From Smithellaceae bacterium (GTDB lineage: Bacteria; Desulfobacterota; Syntrophia; Syntrophales; CAMTWB01), in assembly GCA_034368785.1 (NCBI GenBank), contig JAXMLI010000124.1:1-36137 (forward strand): a stretch of DNA of 36,137 nucleotides, in the 5' to 3' direction. The notes beneath the pieces are model-generated. The model searched no databases. It was not told the origin of the DNA and worked only from the letters and a program-made list of their open reading frames with translations. The position numbers and the translations under genes were made by a program. This document shows, piece by piece, positions 2,919-35,536 of the stretch (position 1 is its first letter; the number at the start of each line of letters is the position of its first letter).

Positions 2919-4055
2919 TCAGGGCCGCACCAGGTCAAGCACCGTCACCTCGGGCGGGGCCAGGAAGCGGATCGGCGGCCCCCAGGTACCAGTTCCCCGG
3001 CTGGTGTAGAGGGACGAGCCTTTTGAAAGCCTGGCGAAACCCGTGGGATAGGGAAAAACCAGACGGGTCAGGAGATAAAAGGGGAAGATCTGGCCCCGGT
3101 GGGTATGGCCGGAGACCTGGAGATCAAAAAGGCCGAGGCTGTCCTCCTCCACCAGGGGCTGATGTTTCAAGAGCAGGGTAAAGCGGTCCCGGGGAAGCCC
3201 CGCGAGGAGCGTTTTTTCCTCCCCCGGCAAGGCCAGGCCAAACCGCTGCGCCGTGGGATCATCCGCCCCCGCCAGATTCACCAGCCCCCCCACCGTGACG
3301 GCTTCTCCCCGGAGCAGGGTGAACCCGGCCTCCTGGGTCAGGGCCAGGGCATAGGGCAGACCCACAAAATACTCGTGGTTGCCCGGGACGGCGTATTTGC
3401 CCAAGGGAGGCTGGTACTTGGCCAGGAGCGCCATGGACCCCTCCACATGGTTCAGCTGCCCGTCCACAAGATCCCCCAGGGAAATCAGGAGATCTGGCTT
3501 GGCCTCCTCGAGGACCCGCAGCACCCTTTTCACCCGGTCTTCGCCCACGATCACCCCCAGATGAAGATCGGAAATAAAGGCGATCCGCAGTCGGTCCACC
3601 CCGGCAGGGAGCTTTTCCGTGACCAGGGTATGGGTCTCCGTTTTGATCTGAAGCGCCGCGTAAAACCCATAGAAACCAATCAGGATGGACAGGAGACCGG
3701 GAAGGAAAAATGCGGTCCGCCGGGAGGGTCGGAGCGCCGAGAGATCCAGCCAGGGGGAGAGCCCCCAGAGAAGGAGGCGATAGAGATCAACGAGGAAGGA
3801 AAGGGAAAAGCAGAGGAACGCCACCCCCATCCAAATGTAGCCCGTATAGGCAAGGAGTCTGGCCAGGAGATCCAGCTCATGGCGCTCGGCCAGACGCACC
3901 AGGACGGGCGCGATGATCATGAAGATAAAAATCACCCCCAGGAGCGCCTTGCCAGGAGCGCCCGGTGCCAGGGCGCCGACTATTTTCCCGTAGAGATAGT
4001 AATGCAGCCCCGTGTAAAGGGTTAAAAAAATCGTGAGAAAAAGGGACATGGTCAT
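2919..4055 (-). CDS. membrane-anchored metallophosphoesterase (calcineurin-like, YkuE-type)
   Basis: 378 aa. There are about four N-terminal hydrophobic helices, then the phosphoesterase motifs ISDLHLG, GDLVDG, GNHEYF and GHTHRGQ. Confidence 0.85.
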   Translation of the reverse strand: MTMSLFLTIFLTLYTGLHYYLYGKIVGALAPGAPGKALLGVIFIFMIIAPVLVRLAERHELDLLARLLAYTGYIWMGVAFLCFSLSFLVDLYRLLLWGLSPWLDLSALRPSRRTAFFLPGLLSILIGFYGFYAALQIKTETHTLVTEKLPAGVDRLRIAFISDLHLGVIVGEDRVKRVLRVLEEAKPDLLISLGDLVDGQLNHVEGSMALLAKYQPPLGKYAVPGNHEYFVGLPYALALTQEAGFTLLRGEAVTVGGLVNLAGADDPTAQRFGLALPGEEKTLLAGLPRDRFTLLLKHQPLVEEDSLGLFDLQVSGHTHRGQIFPFYLLTRLVFPYPTGFARLSKGSSLYTSRGTGTWGPPIRFLAPPEVTVLDLVRP

Positions 4056-4294: not shown

Positions 4295-4302
4295 TTTTTG
4301 GC

Positions 4303-4329
4303 TGGTTCAATCTTGCAGATTGAACCAGT
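4303..4329. repeat. 12-bp-stem palindrome ctggttcaatct-tgc-agattgaaccag
   Basis: Perfect inverted repeat read directly. Related ttgaaccag / gcaagattga strings occur at 14905-14925 and 21575-21590. It is followed by an AATCCNC heptamer run (about 4345-4395). Confidence 0.6.
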
Positions 4330-4403
4330 CAAAAAGAATTGGGGTTGGGGTTTAATCCCCAATCCGCAATCCAGAATCAGTACATCCGCAATATCCAACG
4401 CCG

Positions 4404-5138
4404 TCACGGTTCCGGCCAGACCTCACGGACAAAGGCCGGATAGATGGCGCGCATCCTCTCTTTGACCCGCCCCCGCAGGATTGAGAGTTCCGCCTTCGTT
4501 GCTTGTGGTTCATATGGAACATCTCCTGTTCTCCCAAGGTCGAAACCGGTGTTCGCCGCCACCTCGGCATATGACGCACCCGGCAGCAGACTCTCCAGAA
4601 CAATCCGTTTCTCTGTTTCGTCGAAGCGCATTACGCACAGGGGCGTCACCACATGGCTGAGCCCTCCCCGCCGCCAGGGGAGAGTTTCCCCCTCGTCAAA
4701 GGCCGTGGCGGTTATAAAATCCACCCGGGGAACGAAGAGCCTCCTGTGATGGCCCGTAGTGAAAAGGATGGTGCGGCCGCTCAGGCAGTAGAGCATCGAC
4801 GAACCGGCCCCGCCGGGGAGACGGACCGTGGGATTCTCATAATCGCCGATTACGACAAGATTGATGCGGCCCTGCTGATCGATCTGGGCGCCCGAGAGGA
4901 AAAAGACATCGAGCCGCCCCTGCTGGGCGAGACCGAAGAGTTCATGGAGGCCCCCGGTAAGTCGCGCCTCGGGATCGCCGTAGATCAGGGGAACCAGCGC
5001 CGGGGCATGGGTTTCTCTCGCCAGCAGACAGGCCGCCGCAGGGATCGGGGACAGGGTGCCGGTGGCGGCCGTTTCACCGTTTTTGAGGAGACGGGAAATG
5101 GCCAGAATCATCAGTTCAAAGGAATGCGCGTTATTCAT
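4404..5138 (-). CDS. CoA-transferase subunit B (glutaconate CoA-transferase GctB-like, family I)
   Basis: The ORF track gives 4404-5195. The preferred start is ATG 5138-5136 (MNNAHSFELMILAISRLL...), 2 nt after the TAA of the alpha subunit. FFLSGAQIDQQGRINL and PGGAGSS are typical of beta subunits. Confidence 0.8.
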   Translation of the reverse strand: MNNAHSFELMILAISRLLKNGETAATGTLSPIPAAACLLARETHAPALVPLIYGDPEARLTGGLHELFGLAQQGRLDVFFLSGAQIDQQGRINLVVIGDYENPTVRLPGGAGSSMLYCLSGRTILFTTGHHRRLFVPRVDFITATAFDEGETLPWRRGGLSHVVTPLCVMRFDETEKRIVLESLLPGASYAEVAANTGFDLGRTGDVPYEPQATKAELSILRGRVKERMRAIYPAFVREVWPEP

Positions 5139-5982
5139 GGGGATCAAATCCCACAACCCGGAGATAGGCATCAAGGTCAGGAGGCCCGTAAACATATTTT
5201 TCCAGGTATTCTTTGAAGTCGCCCGGGGTTTTCGCTGCCTGGAGATATTCTTTCATGTGCCCCTCGTCCGTTTCGTATCGCCCGGGACAGGCGGTAGGGT
5301 GGGCGCCGCCGGGGGCAACCACCACGCCATCGATGTGAATGCCGGCAACATAGACCTCATCTCGTGCCGGAAGGAGGTCATCCGTTTCCACCAGCGCCTC
5401 CACCTGGGCGATGGTCTTTCTTGCCGCCATGGCCAGCAGCCGGTCGGTCCGGCCGCCAAGGGTGACCACGCCTCCCAGGCGATCCCCCCGGCGGCAATGG
5501 ATCAGCGCCACATCGGGGATGATCGGCGGCACCACCACATATTCGCCTTTGGTGTAGGGATCACGGAGGGTCTTGAGGTCCGGCCTGATCTTCATATAGT
5601 CGGAACCACGCAGGCCAAGGACCGGGATGAACGGAAGGTTATGGACTCCTGCCAGGAGTCCCAAAAGCAGGGCCGGTCAAATGGTCTCTTGGAGCTTGAG
5701 TTCCCCGGCCGTCGCCTTCTTCCGGAAAAAGGGGGCCATGCCGAATTCATCGAGTGCCACCTGGGGAAACTGGATCGTTTCCACCGCGCCCGCCCCGATG
5801 AGGAGATCCGCCACATAGCCGCCCGTCAAGACCGGCGTCAGGGTGAGTCCCCTGACCCCCCTTTTGATCACCTCCCGAATTACCGCCATGGGATTCATGG
5901 ACATGCCGGCCCCGACACCCAGATGGAGGCCGTCGGTTATCAAGCTGGCGGCCTCTGCCGCGGTCATGATCTTATCTTTCAT
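5131..5982 (-). CDS. CoA-transferase subunit A (GctA-like) interrupted by one in-frame TGA at 5677-5679: selenocysteine candidate or nonsense pseudogene
   Basis: ORFs 5677-5982 and 5131-5664 are in the same frame. The sequence reads ...AGELKLQETI-TGA-PALLLGLLAGVHNLPFIPVLG.... Together they give ~283 aa collinear with GctA/ScoA-type alpha subunits. The downstream part has no ATG or RBS. ATG 5982 overlaps the upstream stop (ATGA). Confidence 0.7.
5643..5661 (-). other. SECIS-like hairpin 15 nt 3' of the in-frame UGA
   Basis: The minus-strand RNA GGACUCCU-GGC-AGGAGUCC forms a perfect 8-bp stem (or 7 bp with loop UGGCA). G residues lie in the loop, and the loop is ~23 nt from the UGA. Confidence 0.4.
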
Positions 5983-7979
5983 TGCCGTTTCTCCTTCAAC
6001 CGGGGAGGCTTGAGCTGCCCTAATTTCCTATATTTTCTGCGGCGGCGGAGCCTTCTTATCAGATAAATCACCAGGGCCACGAGCAACAGGACGAAGACAA
6101 TGGCCCCCAGGGCCGCCCAGGTTACCCAGGTCCCGCGGGAGAGGAGGGAGATGGGATTGTAGCTGGCCTCGCTGACGATCCTCCCCAGTTTCCCCCGATA
6201 CTTCTCCGGCACCGTCGGGAGGCGATCGCCACCCTTGGCGGGGAATCCCGCCAGATATTCCATGATGACCACCCACTCTTTGACCTCCTGAATCCCCGAC
6301 TTGGTCTTGTCGGCATCGATCCGAAAATCCGCGAGCTCGGCAATCGGCTTCCCCTGGCGATCCTTGGGCACGATGGTGAGGATTTGATAGGTAAAGCCGC
6401 CGATAATCTTCAGAAAAGTGGCGTTGTAGATGTTTGCCACTACCCGGTAAAGCTCCCGGTTGCGCGCCGAGTAGTCCAGCGGCTTATAACCCTCCTCTTC
6501 GCTGCCGAGCCAGATCCCCGTCACCCGGTCGAAGAGCATCCGGCGGGGGTTGTAGGTGAATTTCACCCCCGAGACCTGAAGGAAATAGGAATCGCCCTTG
6601 AGGGGATAGACGCTGGTCAGCACCTCCAGTGCCTTTTTAATCTCCGAGGCATAGAGGTAGCAGGTGAGCAGGGGATAGCCCATAGTGTCATCCATGCCGA
6701 TCCCCAGCGGCACCGCCCTGAATATGTCGGTTACGGCCAGCCTTCCCGTCTTCCCCTTCAGGAGGTCCTCCCTGATGACCCCGTTGGATTCTATCGCCAT
6801 TACTACCTTGGTAACCGGGTCTTTGGGATCATAATCATATTTGTTGGCGTACCAGCGGATCCCGTCGGCAATCAGATTGCCCAACGGGGACTCCTCTTCT
6901 ATTACGGTCAGGTCAAAGTCTGTCCGGGCGATGGTCTGGTAAAAGCCATAGCCCTTTTCCTTCAGCACCCTTTTATCGATTTCCGCGATGAACCCTTCGA
7001 TCCGGGCCTGCATTTGGGCATCGCCCGCGATCGATCCATCCACGGGATGGAGCTTGTACTCCTTCAGGGCAACCTTGCCCTGCTCCAGCACCAGGTCCAT
7101 GACCCCCACATATTTCCCGTAACTTTCCGCCTGGACGATGAAGGTGGAGTTGACCTGGAGGGGCTGGTCCAGTTTGGTATGGCTGTGACCGCCGATGATC
7201 ACATCGATGCCGGGGACATTCTTCGCCAGGTTCTCATCTTCAGAGATCTTTTTCCGCTTGTTCACCCCGCTGTGGGAAAGGCAGACGACCAGGTCCACCC
7301 GCTCTTTTTCCCGCAGCTCCTGGACCATTCGGCGGGATACCTCCAGGGGATCGCCGAACTTTACGGGAGAGGCGAAGGGGGCCTTCTCGGCGGCATCCTT
7401 GCCCATGATCCCGAAGATGCCGATCCTGAGCCCGCCCCGTTCAATGACGATATAGGGTTTCACCCTCCCCTTTTTGAACTCCGCCTCCAGGGAATCATCT
7501 TTGTCGCTCTCGGCGCTGAAAATTGCGTTGGCCAGCACCAACTGGGGAAGCCCTCCCCTGGCCGCCGCCGCCTCGAGGATTTTGGCCAACCCCCGGGGTT
7601 TTAAATCGAACTCGTGATTTCCCGGAACGAGGGCGTCGTAACCCATCTCCTTCATCAGGACCAGCTCCATCGCCTCCTCCCTGGAGAGCATATGAAAGAG
7701 GGTCCCCATCAGAAAATCCCCGCCGTCCAGGGTCAGCACCGGAGAGGTCCGTCTCGCCCTTTCCCGGCTCAGGATGGCCGCCACGCGGGCGAGGCCTCCT
7801 CTGGTGGCATCGCCGCCGGCTACCTGCGGCTGGTAATCCAGGTTGGGGGAAAAGCCCAGCAGGTTCGAATGGAGGTCATTGGTGTGCAGGATGGTAAGCT
7901 CTCTTCCTTGCGCGGAAGGAGAGGATAGCGGCAGAATGGTGACAAACAGGGCAATAAGCAGGATACGGACAATCTTCAT
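5979..7979 (-). CDS. bifunctional metallophosphatase/5'-nucleotidase (UshA-like) with signal peptide and C-terminal TM anchor
   Basis: The preferred start is ATG 7979 (MKIVRILLIALFVTILPLSSPSAQG). The motifs HTNDLHS, GGDF, GNHEFD and GGHSHT are present, followed by a 5'-nucleotidase C-domain. The C-terminus is WVTWAALGAIVFVLLLVALVIYLIRRLRRRRKYRK. Confidence 0.85.
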   Translation of the reverse strand: MKIVRILLIALFVTILPLSSPSAQGRELTILHTNDLHSNLLGFSPNLDYQPQVAGGDATRGGLARVAAILSRERARRTSPVLTLDGGDFLMGTLFHMLSREEAMELVLMKEMGYDALVPGNHEFDLKPRGLAKILEAAAARGGLPQLVLANAIFSAESDKDDSLEAEFKKGRVKPYIVIERGGLRIGIFGIMGKDAAEKAPFASPVKFGDPLEVSRRMVQELREKERVDLVVCLSHSGVNKRKKISEDENLAKNVPGIDVIIGGHSHTKLDQPLQVNSTFIVQAESYGKYVGVMDLVLEQGKVALKEYKLHPVDGSIAGDAQMQARIEGFIAEIDKRVLKEKGYGFYQTIARTDFDLTVIEEESPLGNLIADGIRWYANKYDYDPKDPVTKVVMAIESNGVIREDLLKGKTGRLAVTDIFRAVPLGIGMDDTMGYPLLTCYLYASEIKKALEVLTSVYPLKGDSYFLQVSGVKFTYNPRRMLFDRVTGIWLGSEEEGYKPLDYSARNRELYRVVANIYNATFLKIIGGFTYQILTIVPKDRQGKPIAELADFRIDADKTKSGIQEVKEWVVIMEYLAGFPAKGGDRLPTVPEKYRGKLGRIVSEASYNPISLLSRGTWVTWAALGAIVFVLLLVALVIYLIRRLRRRRKYRKLGQLKPPRLKEKRQ

Positions 7980-8063
7980 GATGCACCTCGCTTCGGGGGA
8001 TATGTCTTTATTGCGGATTAACACCAAATCACCGCTCCTCCTGCTGGTAGAGATCGAAAAGGA

Positions 8064-10735: not shown

Positions 10736-12019
10736 TCAGTGGTGCCGGTAAACTTTACCAAGTTTAATCGCGCAGAACTCGCCGCACATGGTGCATCCTT
10801 CCTCGTGGGCGCTCGCGCTTACCTCCAGGAGTTCCCTGGCCTTCTGGGGGTCCAGGGAAATGGCAATCTGCCCCTCCCAGTCAAAATCCCGGCGGTACCT
10901 GGCCATCTGGAGGTTCCGCTCCCAGGCCCCCGGCAACCCCTTGGCGATATCCGCCACATGGGCGGCCAGCCTGGCGGCGATTACCCCTTCCCGCACATCC
11001 GCGAGGGTCGGCAACCGGAGATGCTCCGACGGGGTGACATAACAGAGAAAATCCGCCCCGGCCGCCCCGGCGATGGCCCCGCCGATGGCCGCGGTGATAT
11101 GATCATAGCCGGGGGCAATATCCGTGGGCAGGGGTCCCAGGACATAGAAGGGCGCGTCATTGCATAAACTCTTCTGGAGGACCACATTGGCCTCGATCTC
11201 CTTCAGAGGGACATGGCCGGGTCCCTCGATCATCACCTGGACCCCCCTGGCCCGGGCCCGCTTCGTCAGTTCCCCGAGGATAATCAGCTCCTGAACCTGG
11301 CTGCGGTCGGTAGAATCCGCCAGACAACCCGGACGCAGGCCGTCGCCGAGGCTCAAAACCATGTCATAACGACGGGAAATCTCCACGAGCCGGTCATACT
11401 GCTCGTAAAAGGGATTTTCCCGGTCGTTGAAGGACATCCAGTTTGCCGTGATCGAACCGCCGCGACTCACAATGCCCAGCACCCGCCCGGATTCACTGAG
11501 ACTGGCAATGCTTTTTTTTGTGATCCCGCAATGGACCGTAAGGAAATCCACCCCGTCCTCGCCGTTTTCCTCGATCACCCGGAACATATCTTCCGGATCG
11601 ATTTCCACCACGGCCTTCTGCTTGTTCAGGGTCTCCGCGGCGATCTGGTACATGGGCACGGTCCCCACGAGGACAGGCGAGGCCTCCATGATCTTCTTCC
11701 TGATCATCCGGAGGTCTCCGCCCGTGGACAAATCCATGATCGCGTCGGCCCCGGCCGCGGCTGATACCCGCACCTTCTCCAGTTCCAGATCAAGGTCGAA
11801 ATGGTCCCTGGAGGTACCAAGATTGGCATTCACCTTTGTCCTCAATCCCCTGCCGATGGCCGCGGGGGCGATATTACGATGGTTCACGTTTCTCACTACC
11901 ACGATATTGCCCTCTTCCACCCCCCGGCGGATAAATTCCGGCGATATCCCTTCCTGTTCGGCACAGAGGGTCATTTCCTCGGAAATTTTCCCGGCCCTCG
12001 CCATTTCTAATTGTGTCAT
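10736..12019 (-). CDS. thiC: phosphomethylpyrimidine synthase ThiC (short anaerobe-type form)
   Basis: 427 aa. The sequence is collinear with ThiC (MDLSTGG, TVPMYQ, FLTVHCG, SRGGS, PGHVP, GPLPTDIAPGYDHI, and C-terminal CTMCGEFC). ATG 12019 overlaps the thiD stop (ATGA). Confidence 0.9.
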   Translation of the reverse strand: MTQLEMARAGKISEEMTLCAEQEGISPEFIRRGVEEGNIVVVRNVNHRNIAPAAIGRGLRTKVNANLGTSRDHFDLDLELEKVRVSAAAGADAIMDLSTGGDLRMIRKKIMEASPVLVGTVPMYQIAAETLNKQKAVVEIDPEDMFRVIEENGEDGVDFLTVHCGITKKSIASLSESGRVLGIVSRGGSITANWMSFNDRENPFYEQYDRLVEISRRYDMVLSLGDGLRPGCLADSTDRSQVQELIILGELTKRARARGVQVMIEGPGHVPLKEIEANVVLQKSLCNDAPFYVLGPLPTDIAPGYDHITAAIGGAIAGAAGADFLCYVTPSEHLRLPTLADVREGVIAARLAAHVADIAKGLPGAWERNLQMARYRRDFDWEGQIAISLDPQKARELLEVSASAHEEGCTMCGEFCAIKLGKVYRHH

Positions 12020-12849
12020 CTCTCTCCTCCTATCTGCCTCTTGTCCCGCAAGACGGGCGCCAGGTGATTCGTCGGGCCATGGCCCGCCCCGAGCCTGAAG
12101 GCCCTTCTGATGGCCTCGGTTATATACTCTTTAGCCTCCCTTACCGCCAAGGGCAACGGCAACCCTAGGGCAAGCAGGGTGGCCAGGGCGGCCGAATAGG
12201 TGCAGCCGGTCCCGTGGGTGTCCTTGGTATCAATCCGGGGAGCGCGGAATTCGTAAAATTCCACGCCATCATAGAGGACGTCCACCAGTTCGGCGTAGGA
12301 TTCATCCAGATGTCCCCCCTTGACCAGCACGTTTTTCGGGCCGAGCTGCTTTATCGCCTGCGCCGCCTGCTTCATATGCTCTATCTTGTTAATCTTCATC
12401 CCCGCGAGGACCTCCGCCTCCGGTATGTTCGGGGTAAGGAGATAGGCCAGGGGGATCAGCTCTTTCACCATCGTTCTCACGGCTTCCTCCCCTATCAGCG
12501 AGGCGCCTCCCTTGGCCCTCATGACCGGATCTACCACCAAAAGCTCGATCCGGAATTCCCGGATCATGGCGGCCACCGCCGATGTTATCTCGGCATTTGC
12601 CAGCATCCCGGTCTTTACCGAGTCCACCCCGATATCGGAAACCACCGAGGTGATCTGTTTTTTGACGAAATCCGCGGGTATTTCATAAATTCCCTGGACC
12701 CCGAGGGTATTCTGGGCCGTGAGCGCGGTAATCGCACTCATGCCGAAACCGCCCAGGGCGGTAATGGTCTTGAGATCCGCCTGAATCCCGGCGCCGCCCC
12801 CTGAATCGGAACCGGCGATGGTCAATATTCTTTTCGGCTTAACCGTCAT
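12016..12849 (-). CDS. thiD: hydroxymethylpyrimidine/phosphomethylpyrimidine kinase ThiD
   Basis: 277 aa. ILTIAGSDSGGGAGIQADLKT, DPVM..KGG, LVKGGHL and GTGCT..SA motifs are present. Confidence 0.9.
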   Translation of the reverse strand: MTVKPKRILTIAGSDSGGGAGIQADLKTITALGGFGMSAITALTAQNTLGVQGIYEIPADFVKKQITSVVSDIGVDSVKTGMLANAEITSAVAAMIREFRIELLVVDPVMRAKGGASLIGEEAVRTMVKELIPLAYLLTPNIPEAEVLAGMKINKIEHMKQAAQAIKQLGPKNVLVKGGHLDESYAELVDVLYDGVEFYEFRAPRIDTKDTHGTGCTYSAALATLLALGLPLPLAVREAKEYITEAIRRAFRLGAGHGPTNHLAPVLRDKRQIGGER

Positions 12850-12942: not shown

Positions 12943-12967
12943 TTTTTAGGATAAGTAAAAACTTGTC

Positions 12968-13043
12968 GCTAATCCCTACGCTGGCATTACCCAGGTCAGG
13001 TTCAAAGGGTATCATCTCAGCCTTTCAGGCACCCCCGGCTACC
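12968..13043 (-). promoter_or_regulatory. TPP (THI-box) riboswitch upstream of thiD-thiC
   Basis: The minus strand reads GGGGUGCCUGAAAGGCUGAGAUGAUACCCUUUGAACCUGACCUGGGUAAUGCCAGCGUAGGGA. This carries the conserved GGGGUGC, CUGAGA, ACCUGA.CUGG.UAAUGCCAGCGUAGGGA blocks. Confidence 0.9.
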
Positions 13044-13099
13044 CTGTCAACTACTCCCTTGACCTCTTAAAATCAAGGGATTTTTTCTGCTGCGGACCG

Positions 13100-15846: not shown

Positions 15847-16293
15847 GGTGTGCAACAAAAATGTTGGGCAATCTTGCAGAGACTTACCCTCCCTTTGGAA
15901 AAGGGGGGCAGGGGGAATTTATCCTAAAATAGGCACGAATATCCGGTTAGGAAATTGCGCTTGTCCTTATCAGGTTATTTTTGAGGCATAATGACCGTCT
16001 TTGCCGGTCTTCTTCCTCTTTTCTTCCTCCCCCTGAAGGGGAGGCCTAAAACCCCATCCCCCTCCTAACCTCCCCCTTGAAGGGGGAGGAATTAAGTAGT
16101 GCCCCTCCCAAGGCCATCTATAAAGGGGGAGGAAGAAAACCCGAACCAAACAGAGTATTTATGGATGACGCAAAAAGCTAACCGGACATTGCTGAAAAAT
16201 AATGGACCATTTAGTATCCGTCAAATCTCCCCAACCCCTCTTTGCTAAAGAGGGGAGAGAAACTGCCCTGCCCGTTATTTTGTCGCGCGCCCC
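15847..16293. mobile_element. inverted-orientation copy of the GGTGTGCGACAA element carrying a nested ~257-bp element
   Basis: ggtgtgcaacaaaaatgttgggcaatcttgcagagacttaccc (15847-) is the reverse complement of the right-end type. cccctctttgctaaagagggg...ttgtcgcgcgccc (-16293) is the reverse complement of the left-end type. Confidence 0.6.
15936..16192. mobile_element. nested ~257-bp MITE-like element (TIR cgaatatccggttag / ctaaccggacattgc), copy 1
   Basis: Reverse-complement homologue of 32022-32259. For example, the reverse complement of 16141-16192 matches gcaatgtccggttagctttttgcgtcatccataaatactct.t.t.gttcgggtttt at 32022-32078. The interior has three CCCCTT(C/G)AAGGGG hairpins. Confidence 0.65.
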
Positions 16294-16429
16294 CCCTGCA
16301 GACAGGACCATCCTGACATTTTTCAGCTTGTCCTTCCTCACATCTTCCCCTCCCTGTCAACCCGAAAATGTGGTAGATAGGGCGATACTTAATCCCCTCT
16401 GTCACTGATGCAAGAAAGGAAGGACGACC

Positions 16430-17077
16430 ATGATTGAATTCGAAAAGGACAAGATAAGAAAGAGTGTGCCGAAAATACTGGAGGAAATGAAGAAAAGAAG
16501 GTTCGATCCCCATTTCTTTGAAACGGCCGCTGAGGCCAGGGATTTTATCGTGAGCCAGATCAATCCCGGGGAAACCGTCGGGATCGGCGGCAGCATTACC
16601 TTGCGGGAAGATCTGGCGGTAGTCGGGGAGCTGAGGAAAAAAGGGATAACCGTTGTGGATCACTGGGATTCCGGCGCCGATGCTGCTCTGAGACTGGAGC
16701 TGAAGCGTAAACAGCGGATGGCGGATGTTTTCCTCACCGGCGTAAACGCCGTTACGAGAGACGGGATACTGGTCAATATGGACGGAGGAGGAAACCGGGT
16801 GGCCGGCGCCTGTTCCGGACCAAAACGGGTCATCGCGGCCTTCGGGATGAACAAGCTCACGGACTCGCTGGAGCTGGCCATCCACCGGACCCGTCACCAT
16901 GCGGCAATCATCAATTCCATCCGGCTGGAACGCAAGGTTCCCTGCGCCCAGACGGGAATCTGCACCGATTGCCACGCCCCGGAAAGGATCTGCGCGGCCC
17001 TCTTGATTCTCTTCACCAAACCGGGCGATATCGACAAGTTCACCCTGGTGCTGGTGAATGAGGATTTGGGCCATTAG
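16430..17077 (+). CDS. LUD-domain (LutB/C, YkgG-like) protein
   Basis: 215 aa. ...GETVGIGGSITL..., VFLTGVNAVTRDGILVNMDGGGNRV and GPKRVIAAFGMNK are typical of lactate-utilisation LUD-domain proteins. The C-terminus has a Cys cluster, CAQTGICTDCHAPERIC. The antisense ORF 16211-17143 is a shadow. Confidence 0.75.
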   Translation: MIEFEKDKIRKSVPKILEEMKKRRFDPHFFETAAEARDFIVSQINPGETVGIGGSITLREDLAVVGELRKKGITVVDHWDSGADAALRLELKRKQRMADVFLTGVNAVTRDGILVNMDGGGNRVAGACSGPKRVIAAFGMNKLTDSLELAIHRTRHHAAIINSIRLERKVPCAQTGICTDCHAPERICAALLILFTKPGDIDKFTLVLVNEDLGH

Positions 17078-17081
17078 AGGA

Positions 17082-17114
17082 TTGTAGGGGCAGGTTTCAA
17101 ACCTGCCCCTACAA
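17082..17114. repeat. near-perfect 33-nt palindrome ttgtaggggcaggttt-c-aaacctgcccctacaa between convergent genes
   Basis: Read directly. It lies between the LUD stop (17077) and the PaaK-like stop (17214). There is no flanking U-tract, so it is a hairpin of unproven terminator function. Confidence 0.7.
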
Positions 17115-17213
17115 AGCGTTGCAGCGACGAGGGATGCAGCCAAAGCACAGCATCCGGACTTTGTACGGAGTCGTCAACCCTGGCATCAGGAACCATTTGC
17201 CCTTACCGGCGCC

Positions 17214-18717: not shown

Positions 18718-19359
18718 TCATTTCTTCGGCGAGAAGATCCCCTCGAAGGAAGCCCGTATTACCTGCCCCTTCGGATCCTCAAAGGTTGCCGTGCCGTTTC
18801 TCACAGAAATGGGGAAGGTGAAATCCGACACCCCTTTCCACCACTTTTCCAGGAGATCATGGGACTTGGTAATTTCTTTTCGTTCGATCATTTCGATCAA
18901 TGTATGTCCCCTGCTGACCAGCAGCATCCCGTTGGCGACTGCGGAATCCAGGACAACGTTGACCCTCAGGTAGTCTGTTTTTCCCCCGGGGACATAGTTG
19001 TCGTCATAATACATTACCGTATTGACCTCGAAGTCCTCGAAGGCCACGGTGAACTTCAGATCGTCCAGCATGACCATTGTCTTGTTCGGGTTTTCCAGGG
19101 CAAAGACAAAGGCCAGGACGAGCGGGGTCGAACTCTTTGCCGGGTCAATCCATCCCCAGTAGCTGGCGATTTCCACCCGCTCCAGTTTGATGACCGGTGG
19201 TTTCAGTGCCTCCTGTTTCTTGGCCATCATGGGCTTTTTGTCCATCATGGGTTTCTTGTCCGTTCCCTCTGCCTTTCCGTGCGAGGTAGCGCCGCAGGGA
19301 GCCACCGCCAATCCAATGATTACAAACACCATCAAAATGGTTATCCATATCTTTTTCAT
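18718..19359 (-). CDS. secreted/lipoprotein-like hypothetical protein, possible LEA14/NDR1-like beta-sandwich
   Basis: The preferred start is ATG 19359 (MKKIWITILMVFVIIGLAVAPCGA). There is a KKPMMDKKPMMAKK tandem motif. IKLERVEIASYW...LKFTVAFEDFEVN resembles LEA_2-type domains by eye only. Confidence 0.5.
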   Translation of the reverse strand: MKKIWITILMVFVIIGLAVAPCGATSHGKAEGTDKKPMMDKKPMMAKKQEALKPPVIKLERVEIASYWGWIDPAKSSTPLVLAFVFALENPNKTMVMLDDLKFTVAFEDFEVNTVMYYDDNYVPGGKTDYLRVNVVLDSAVANGMLLVSRGHTLIEMIERKEITKSHDLLEKWWKGVSDFTFPISVRNGTATFEDPKGQVIRASFEGIFSPKK

Positions 19360-19372
19360 ACATTCCCTCCCT

Positions 19373-20182
19373 TCAGGTGAGCCAACGTTTCCTGCGTTTA
19401 TAATGTTTAACATCCTTAAAGCTCTTTCTGGTCCCCAAATCCGTAAGGCCCAGATAGAAATCCTTGATATCCGGATTCTTGGACAGTTCCTCGGCGGTGT
19501 TATCCATCACGATACGGCCATTCTCCATCACATAGGCATAGGGCGCCACATTGAGGGCCAGCTTGGCATTCTGCTCCACCAGGAGAATGGCTATTTTCGA
19601 TTCCTCATGCAGACGGGTAATGATGTTAAAAATCTCGCCGATAAGCAGGGGGGCCAGCCCCATCGATGGCTCATCCAGCAGTATCAGCTTAGGATCGGCC
19701 ATCAGGGCGCGGCCCACGACGGTCATCTGCTGCTCCCCGCCGCTGATGAGTCCGGCCGTTTCACCCCTCTTCTCCTTAAGACGGGGGAAGTAATTGTAGA
19801 CCATCTCCAGACCTCTTTTGATGGCCCCCCGATCCTTTCTCAGGTGACCGCCCACAATGAGATTCTGTTCCACCGTCAGGTGTTCGAAGACTAGCCGGCC
19901 TTCGATCACCTGAATAATCCCCGACTTGGCGATGTCTTCGGCGTTTTTCCTGTCGATGCGTTCCCCCATGAAGAGGATGTTGCCGTCCGTTACCTTCCCC
20001 TCTTCATGTTTGAGCAGACCGGAGATGGCCTTTAATGTGGTACTCTTACCCGCCCCATTGGCCCCCAGGAGGGCCACAATCCCCCCGGCGGGGATAGAAA
20101 TGGACACCCCTTTGAGTACCAGGATCACCTCATGGTACTTAACCTCGATACTGTTTATCTGTAATATGGGCTCTCCAGTCAA
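19373..20182 (-). CDS. livF: ABC transporter ATP-binding protein, LivF-type
   Basis: Walker A GANGAGKST, signature ISGGEQQM, and Walker B LILLDEPS are present. A basic C-terminal tail follows. Confidence 0.85.
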   Translation of the reverse strand: MTGEPILQINSIEVKYHEVILVLKGVSISIPAGGIVALLGANGAGKSTTLKAISGLLKHEEGKVTDGNILFMGERIDRKNAEDIAKSGIIQVIEGRLVFEHLTVEQNLIVGGHLRKDRGAIKRGLEMVYNYFPRLKEKRGETAGLISGGEQQMTVVGRALMADPKLILLDEPSMGLAPLLIGEIFNIITRLHEESKIAILLVEQNAKLALNVAPYAYVMENGRIVMDNTAEELSKNPDIKDFYLGLTDLGTRKSFKDVKHYKRRKRWLT

Positions 20183-34725: not shown

Positions 34726-35079
34726 GGGGGCGTCACGGTTTCGACGGGGATAGTGAAGCTGTAGCAGCGTACCGAGGTTCCTGCAGGCCTCGTTAAACAG
34801 GCAGGAAAACATAATCGCAGACAACTACGATTACGCTTTAGCCGCTTAGACGGCTAACGTCTCCCTGACATTGCCTGTCGTGTCAGATCGGGGCGTCAAA
34901 CAGACAGGAAAGCCTTCCGGTCCCGCCTGGTGACCGGTGGGTTAAACTTACAGGCTAGGGTCCGGCTGATCCTGCCCCTTCGGGAGCTGCCAGAACCGAA
35001 ATCCAAAACACGGGCTACGTACGTAGACACTGCAGTGAAACATTTTCGGACGCGGGTTCGACTCCCGCCGCCTCCACCA
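34726..35079 (+). ncRNA. ssrA: tmRNA (SsrA), tag reading frame ADNYDYALAA-stop at 34817-34849
   Basis: The 5' end is GGGGGCGUCACGGUUUCGACGGGG. The 3' end is GGACGCGGGUUCGACUCCCGCCGCCUCCACCA, a tRNA-Ala-like acceptor/T-arm with CCA. The tag is GCA GAC AAC UAC GAU UAC GCU UUA GCC GCU UAG. ORFs 34896-35357 and 34930-35130 overlapping it are spurious. Confidence 0.95.
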
Positions 35080-35100
35080 AGTGACAATAGACCACAGAAT

Positions 35101-35148
35101 ACCCGCCTTTCCGGATTATCTCCGGGATGACGGGTTTTCTTTTCCTGC
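35101..35148 (+). terminator. probable ssrA terminator
   Basis: A compound hairpin with ACCCG...CGGGU outer pairs (35101-35105 / 35131-35135) and an inner CCGGA-uuauc-UCCGG, followed by UUUUCUUUUCC. Confidence 0.45.
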
Positions 35149-35418
35149 CTCAGCTCATCTGCCTTCCGGCCGACGGGGTCGGGAGACGAGAGGAATCGTC
35201 CAGAATACGGCCACTTCGTATCACTAATACCAAATGGTCCATGTCGTCTACTTCCAGGGGATGAGGGTCTCGGAAGGGAAAATCCAACCGCGGCCGCAAT
35301 ATCTGCCACCTCTTCCCCTGCTGATGGAAGGCGAAAATAAGCGAAGCCGCCAGACAAAGATCATGTTCTTACCATGCACTTGCCATTAAGCAATATATCT
35401 TCTAGTTAATAGAGGTAA

Positions 35419-35536
35419 TTGCAAAACTCACGGTAAAGACGGCCACGACTTCGCTAGTCCCTCCAAAAGGCGAGGAAAACGGCACGTTTGGGTGACTGGA
35501 GGGACGCGCTCCGTCGCGTCCGCAGGAGTTTTGCAA
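35419..35536. mobile_element. 119-bp MITE-like element, copy 2 (inverted relative to 34123-34241)
   Basis: ttgcaaaactcacggtaaagacggccacgac...ggagggacgcgctccgtcgcgtccgcaggagttttgcaa. It is collinear with the reverse complement of copy 1. Confidence 0.75.

Follow-up and report, generated by a model that had tools for sequence, protein, structure and literature searches.

The closest described relatives of the gene pair considered here are enzymes of the coenzyme A (CoA)-transferase fold. GctAB (1POI), a glutaconate CoA-transferase, belongs with the family I CoA-transferases, as do AtoDA, ScoAB and SCOT. IpdAB is a COCHEA-CoA ring-cleaving hydrolase of Mycobacterium tuberculosis and Rhodococcus jostii (6CO6, 6CO9, 6COJ, 6CON), which shows no CoA-transferase activity and has a beta subunit without the catalytic Glu (PMC5380842). 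AibA/AibB is the 3-methylglutaconyl-CoA decarboxylase of Myxococcus xanthus (5MZW-5N03), in which the catalytic Glu of the beta subunit is replaced by Cys (PMC7756340). We analysed a further relative encoded in a 36,137-nucleotide stretch of DNA (contig JAXMLI010000124.1 of a Smithellaceae bacterium, hereafter the window). The gene encoding its alpha subunit is interrupted by an in-frame TGA at 5679-5677, which comparison with related loci leads us to read, with a probability of about 0.9, as a selenocysteine (Sec) codon.

In bacteria Sec is inserted at a UGA codon when a selenocysteine insertion sequence (SECIS) in the messenger RNA recruits SelB carrying Sec-tRNA(Sec), and this process is the basis of the recoding mechanism that we infer for the present gene. 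A hairpin at 5661-5643 with the loop GGC would serve as the bacterial SECIS during translation and would bring SelB with its Sec-tRNA(Sec) to the ribosome. The product would be a 283-residue alpha subunit containing Sec102, which would then pair with the translationally coupled beta subunit. The features involved are as follows.

5131..5982, minus strand: alpha-subunit gene of the CoA-transferase fold, 283 codons when read through one UGA (Sec102); from translation, PF01144 and tblastn
5677..5679, minus strand: in-frame UGA at residue 102, putatively read as selenocysteine; from the conserved TGA codon and the Cys homologues
5643..5661, minus strand: SECIS-type hairpin with an 8-bp stem and a GGC apical loop, 23 nt from UGA to loop; from comparative data and the bacterial SECIS (bSECIS) criteria
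4404..5138, minus strand: beta-subunit gene, 244 aa; PF01144 match, overlaps the alpha stop codon by 8 nt

Conservation of the in-frame UGA

Translation of the window confirmed that two minus-strand open reading frames (ORFs), 5982-5677 (101 codons) and 5664-5131 (the distal part, 177 residues), lie in a common frame and are parted only by the TGA and the four sense codons CCG GCC CTG CTT, as an earlier reading of the bare sequence (the original prediction) had stated. That prediction also held that the joined ORFs make an alpha subunit of normal length, and indeed their 283 codons match nearly the whole Pfam PF01144 (CoA_trans) profile (positions 2-216 of 217, expectation value (E) 1.5e-17). 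The TGA is the sole stop within the gene and there are no frameshifts. The proposed ATGA overlap with the upstream 5'-nucleotidase gene was found in the window sequence. The 2-nt gap proposed to precede the beta-subunit gene was wrong: the beta ATG at 5138 instead overlaps the alpha stop codon (5133-5131) by 8 nt, the shared stretch being ATGAATAA. Since neighbouring genes terminate at TGA (the 5'-nucleotidase and beta-subunit genes among others), the genetic code here is the standard one, in line with the earlier statement that it is not reassigned.

One genome per species was scanned, and the 56 loci that this yielded were fetched and translated in frame. The codon aligned with the window TGA was TGA in 46 of the 56 loci and was TAA or TAG in none. 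The lineages of the carrier loci were taken from the record titles and number at least seven overall, among them Syntrophales or Syntrophaceae, Thermodesulfobacteriota, Rokuibacteriota, Methylomirabilota, Deferrimicrobia, Spirochaetota, Syntrophomonadaceae and Dehalococcoidia. The tblastn alignments span the TGA (residues 1-279), with 57-72% identity in the Syntrophales-type loci. The C-terminal ~180 residues past the UGA are conserved at the protein level, with about 40-72% identity and many invariant positions. As the tblastn matches cross the stop codon, the distal part of the gene is conserved as protein.

Upon searching protein databases with the joined sequence we obtained dozens of homologues of 55-72% identity that were ~155-192 aa in length and started just past the TGA position, together with a few full-length homologues of 283-284 aa. 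In the alignment the full-length homologues have Cys in the Sec102 column, within the sequence ES-I-C-PALLLGLQAG. Carriers of Cys in this column include database clusters P0002-P0005, Paenibacillus, haloarchaea and others, and the motif around Sec is [E/D]-x-x-U-P. The residue found in this column among orthologues, which the original prediction had left to be decided among Cys, Sec and Gln, is thus Cys or a TGA codon in the close homologues. In a neighbour-joining tree the Sec and Cys forms are interleaved: P0002 and P0005 stand beside locus L028, P0004 beside L044 and the Paenibacillus clade beside L036 and L041. We take this pattern, seen in the sequences, to be the usual exchange of Sec and Cys.

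A search with only the 101-aa N-terminal piece returned 90 database clusters, mostly of exactly 101 aa. Clusters P0008-P0072 and P0121-P0209 represent the putative selenoprotein gene as cut by public gene calls into pieces of 101 aa and ~155-192 aa. In JGI, ENA, NCBI and Logan records the pieces go under the name 'glutaconate CoA-transferase subunit A' or 'hypothetical protein'.

The SECIS-type hairpin and rival readings of the UGA

The hairpin that had been noted 15 nt after the UGA is present at 5661-5643 as GGACUCCU-GGC-AGGAGUCC, with the perfect 8-bp stem described. The published bSECIS criteria are an apical loop of 3-9 nt, an upper stem of 4-16 bp, a G in the first two loop positions, a distance of 16-37 nt from UGA to loop and a minimum free energy of -7.5 kcal/mol or lower (PMC13188914). 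The hairpin falls within every one of these limits, having a 3-nt GGC loop, an 8-bp stem, a spacing of 23 nt and an energy of -12.4 kcal/mol. When a 44-nt stretch was folded as a single sequence, this hairpin (-12.4 kcal/mol) was the centroid structure and the minimum-free-energy structure was an alternative fold. As single-sequence folding was not significant we relied on comparative tests, and the evidence for the relevance of the hairpin is comparative rather than drawn from the folding of one sequence. Rfam gave no SECIS match in the window at gathering thresholds or in a permissive scan of 5560-5720; the matches to small nucleolar RNA and microRNA families at 5560-5720 were dismissed as chance hits.

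The original prediction had asked whether other genomes carry a TGA plus a hairpin at the equivalent place, and the TGA was found in 46 related loci, with the hairpin conserved among the TGA-carrying sequences. All 47 of these aligned over the hairpin without gaps. The GGC loop is invariant among them and the eight-pair helix is paired in 94.9% of the cells, versus 89.5% for column shuffles and at most 55% for slid partners. Compensatory changes, in which both sides of a pair are altered, occur in four of the eight helix pairs. Pair 21/35 (GC in 24 sequences, AU in 13, GU in 5, unpaired in none) ties the synonymous third position of a Gly codon to the second position of an Ala/Val codon, and pair 26/30 is AU in 36 sequences, GC in 2 and UA in 2. 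In the window and in locus L008 the replacement of Gln by Leu (CAG to CTG) is offset by a synonymous change of GCT to GCA. RNAalifold independently predicted the identical helix.

Because the helix overlaps the codons of Gly-Leu-Gln-Ala-Gly, the null model held the amino acids fixed and resampled synonymous codons according to the usage of each gene. The observed sequences formed a mean of 7.64 of the 8 pairs, versus 4.83 expected, and all eight pairs were formed in 35 of the 47 sequences versus 0.6% of the resampled samples. Nine genes of the Cys form keep only 2-7 of the helix pairs. These comparisons show that the hairpin is maintained by selection at synonymous sites.

The TGA shared by 46 loci, the Cys homologues and the conserved, covarying hairpin together support one of the two readings that the original prediction had offered, that of a selenoprotein. 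The other, a formerly intact alpha gene that was struck by a stop mutation and is now decaying, would be compatible with a single in-frame stop and with the Sec machinery not being seen in the window. However, that reading is contradicted by the recurrence of the identical TGA codon in loci of several phyla and by the conservation as protein of the 180 residues downstream; moreover, the gene has acquired no further stops or frameshifts, the beta gene is still coupled and the hairpin is under selection at synonymous sites. We give a nonsense pseudogene practically no credence. The possibility that the related loci are copies of a single contaminating sequence was excluded by their divergence (40-72% identity). 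A sequencing or assembly error deserves as little weight. The true codon would then be TGC or TGT (Cys), which lie one base from TGA, and Cys forms do exist, but the TGA is repeated in 46 independently assembled genomes, and the ~90 clusters of N-terminal fragments, mostly exactly 101 aa in length, come from many samples and assemblers.

Translation might also terminate at the UGA, with the distal 177 residues made by re-initiation to give a three-chain enzyme without selenium. Gene callers everywhere report two ORFs, and a TTG lies four codons past the stop. Against such a split gene, there is no conserved start codon, the called distal starts vary (products of 155-192 aa), the stop is always TGA and never TAA or TAG, and continuous homologues have Cys at exactly the stop position. 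The break would also separate a strand from the helix that it caps, in the active-site region, and a selected hairpin of SECIS geometry has no role in a split gene. We consider this arrangement improbable and, because the C-terminal part remains conserved as protein, we regard the pseudogene, the assembly error and the split gene all as very unlikely. There is a slim chance that the UGA is read without selenium, either by a near-cognate tRNA (Trp or Cys) or through a reassigned code. UGA is the leakiest stop codon and it is followed by C in most of the sequences, but neighbouring genes end at TGA, the homologue column is Cys rather than Trp or Gly, and the hairpin matches the SelB-type SECIS model. 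Reassignment of UGA is not known from the carrier lineages, which also counts against read-through.

Several observations nevertheless weigh against reading the UGA as Sec. The 36-kb window contains neither selA, selB, selC nor selD and no second selenoprotein or TGA-split gene, and no tRNA-Sec was found in any locus examined. As the sel genes are not in the window, the Sec competence of the source genome is assumed from relatives; one relative, Syntrophus aciditrophicus, has 19 selenoproteins, SelD among them (PMC1794560). The hairpin is partly dictated by the coding of Gly-Leu-Gln-Ala-Gly, and the closest Cys form, L057, retains seven of the eight helix pairs. The 44-nt stretch, when folded by itself, has no exceptional thermodynamic stability (z-score -0.96), and the 47 hairpin sequences are phylogenetically related, so that the shuffle statistics overstate their independence.

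The residue-102 column and possible function

A single-sequence search ranked the solved relatives of the alpha subunit in the order IpdA (6CO6, 6CO9, 6COJ, 6CON), GctA (1POI) and AibA (5MZW and related), and a search with the family profile ranked them GctA, AibA and IpdA. The residues that these proteins have in the Sec102 column are:

IpdA (6co6_A and 6con_A): Glu
IpdA variant (6coj_A): Ala
GctA: Gln, within YSQD
AibA: Gly

We used as structure model the monomer of a natural Cys homologue, P0004 (predicted local distance difference test score (pLDDT) 94.3). In this model Cys102 opens the helix 102-114, immediately after the strand 96-99. Reactive thiols and selenols are typically found in such a place, at the start of a helix that comes directly after a strand. 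A Foldseek search with the model gave as its top match 6coj_A, which bears the title 'IpdAB E105A COCHEA-CoA complex', with a template modelling (TM) score of 0.88. Since 6coj_A has Ala in the Sec102 column and its title specifies E105A, the column is that of IpdA Glu105. Crowe et al. reportedly described Glu105 in 2018 as the catalytic base of IpdAB.

Across the 150 best family representatives at 50% identity (P0210-P0359) the column is occupied by Glu (68), Cys (27), Gly (15), Asn (13), His (7) and other residues (20). The residue in this column appears, from these alignments, to set the functional type, and its variation within the GctA/IpdA-like alpha family suggests that several undescribed functional types exist beside IpdA (Glu) and AibA (Gly). 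The original prediction had been troubled that the UGA falls on a conserved Gln rather than on a Cys. This stands for GctA, in which the Gln of YSQD is the residue that HMMER pairs with U102, but not for the close full-length homologues, which have Cys; as far as the alignments go, the concern is confined to the classical transferases, GctA for example. To our knowledge, the Gln of the GctA column is part of the (S/T)PQG motif that marks all classical transferases.

The relatives of the beta subunit are GctB, AibB and IpdB. Among 22 beta sequences no invariant Glu or Asp was found in the segment THAPDL-xPxIYGDPx, the putative counterpart of the GctB Glu54 region, and a pairwise alignment places Ile or Tyr at the position of AibB Cys56 (= GctB Glu54). 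Because the alpha column varies by functional type and the beta subunit apparently has no conserved residue in place of the catalytic Glu of transferases, we are probably not dealing with a CoA-transferase, and the label 'CoA-transferase alpha subunit' fits the fold of the protein but probably not its activity. The NCBIfam transferase models scored far under their cut-offs (45 vs 315 bits and 41 vs 128.5 bits).

We rate it an even bet that this is a non-transferase enzyme whose Sec is catalytic. Both the alignments and the model make processing of an acyl-CoA thioester the more likely activity, be it hydrolysis, ring opening, hydration, decarboxylation or isomerisation. Sec102 (Cys in the homologues) would then act on the acyl-CoA as a nucleophile or as an acid/base, and a selenoester or a Michael-type Se-C adduct would be a possible intermediate. 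We propose only tentatively, at somewhat short of even odds, that this is the first selenoenzyme of the CoA-transferase fold, in which Sec/Cys replaces the IpdA Glu or the transferase Gln as catalytic nucleophile or acid/base. Three points weigh against such a function. The functional argument depends on the IpdA alignment and a monomer model, the alignment of the beta segment with GctB Glu54 is ambiguous (HMMER treats the stretch as an insertion), and the gene neighbourhoods differ between lineages and point to no pathway, only the beta gene being near-universal.

Gene neighbourhood and known systems

Of the 60 loci examined, 59 have the beta gene directly beside alpha, the exception being L029, in which the contig ends inside the alpha gene. 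Other genes of the window to which we refer are:

5979..8027, minus strand: UshA-like 5'-nucleotidase gene upstream of alpha, stop/start overlap ATGA; Pfam 5_nucleotid_C and Metallophos
2919..4055, minus strand: Metallophos gene, ~350 nt downstream of beta; Pfam Metallophos
12016-12849 and 10736-12019, minus strand: ThiD-like and ThiC genes (riboswitch-associated)

A 5'-nucleotidase gene upstream of alpha occurs elsewhere only in the closest relative, L008, and is local context outside the conserved unit. Two UshA-like families, with CxU and CxxU motifs, are catalogued as selenoproteins (PMC13188914, Table 1); the UshA-like gene at 5979-8027 is without an in-frame TGA. The Metallophos gene recurs in 19 Syntrophales-type loci, nearly all of which have it just downstream of beta, and likewise in L060. 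In other loci the neighbours are an acyl-CoA ligase gene (L057), a second CoA_trans pair and Amidohydro_2 (L058), or a family III CoA-transferase and luciferase-like oxygenases (L061). L062 has unrelated flanking genes; close by, the other strand carries genes for acyl-CoA dehydrogenase and ligase. In L058 (6649-11302) and L059 (2558-7211), which come from one Syntrophaceae genome, the Sec-type pair directly follows a second CoA_trans pair of greater length (352 and 272 aa) and Amidohydro_2, and a sigma-54 activator that contains PAS domains is encoded upstream of the whole arrangement.

About 70 nt past the beta stop codon, at ~4300-4335 on the minus strand, there is a 10-bp inverted repeat (GGTTCAATCT-GCA-AGATTGAACC) without a T-rich tail, which was not flagged by a terminator scan. 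Farther away, a thiamine pyrophosphate (TPP) riboswitch (12954-13046, minus strand; Rfam RF00059, 67 bits) lies upstream of the ThiD-like phosphomethylpyrimidine kinase and ThiC genes, and together these look like an ordinary thiamine operon. A transfer-messenger RNA (tmRNA) gene encoding the tag ADNYDYALAA was detected at 34726-35079 on the plus strand by ARAGORN and Rfam (212 bits); a second, overlapping ARAGORN call ('tmRNA*', 34987-35496) was without Rfam support and is probably spurious. Three minus-strand ORFs, 1666-2634, 16211-17143 and 18718-19413 (322, 310 and 231 aa), matched nothing in Pfam at E 1e-5 or better.

The 119 prokaryotic selenoprotein families in Table 1 of a May 2026 review include none with PF01144 or named CoA-transferase (PMC13188914). 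No such family appears in the main texts of deep-Sep (2025), BSepDB (2026) and a 2016 genome survey, and a full-text literature search for selenoprotein or selenocysteine together with CoA-transferase or glutaconate gave nothing relevant. None of the NCBIfam models (June 2026) is specific for the Sec-type alpha subunit. Sequence comparison hence points to a selenoprotein family that is new, relies on the usual recoding mechanism and has a fold not previously linked to selenium. If so, the 101-aa and ~180-aa database fragments are a systematic annotation error, and the pieces should be joined and marked as selenoproteins. The protein would be a rare, probably non-redox selenoprotein that occurs widely in anaerobic bacteria, syntrophic ones among them, and was missed by annotation. 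It may lead to an acyl-CoA reaction of syntrophic anaerobes that has yet to be characterised and could offer an entry point to the part played by selenium in non-redox catalysis.

The catalogued selenoproteins, such as FdhA, SelD and the CTP-synthase-related glutamine-amidotransferase (PMC13188914, Table 1), likewise have one UGA-encoded Sec, Cys homologues and a hairpin in the coding region that fits the bSECIS model, and come from selenoprotein-rich anaerobes. Most known prokaryotic selenoproteins are thiol-oxidoreductase-like (2026 review, PMC13188914), whereas the present protein has a different fold, no UxxC or CxxU redox motif around the Sec, and its putative Sec at the position that decides the chemistry in related enzymes.

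Comparison with GctAB shows that both subunits match PF01144, as in the other family I CoA-transferases, that GctA is the best profile match of the alpha subunit (E 2e-49) and that the alpha-beta order and coupling are held in common. The differences are the Gln of GctA versus Sec/Cys here and the conserved beta Glu equivalent to GctB Glu54, which was not seen in an alignment that is ambiguous at that place. AibAB resembles the present pair in having turned a GctAB-like fold to a non-transferase reaction, with a profile match of E 7e-43. However, Cys56 of AibAB sits in the beta subunit and is dispensable, the corresponding beta position here being Ile or Tyr in the pairwise alignment, and the alpha column of AibA is Gly, whereas here it is Sec or Cys.

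Among the solved structures, IpdAB ranks first for the alpha subunit in the single-sequence search (E 3e-33) as well as in the fold comparison (TM 0.88). The steroid-catabolism or KstR2-type context was not seen in the Pfam-annotated neighbourhoods, which contain phosphoesterases, acyl-CoA ligases, CoA_trans pairs and unrelated genes. The identity to IpdA is only ~29%, the Glu105 of IpdA is Sec or Cys here, and the present carriers appear from their record titles to belong to anaerobic, often syntrophic lineages. Like the pair described here, IpdAB is a heteromeric alpha-beta enzyme of the CoA-transferase fold, and IpdA Glu105 and Sec102 share one alpha-subunit column. If our reading is true, the Sec-type pair would be the third repurposing of the CoA-transferase fold, after IpdAB and AibAB.

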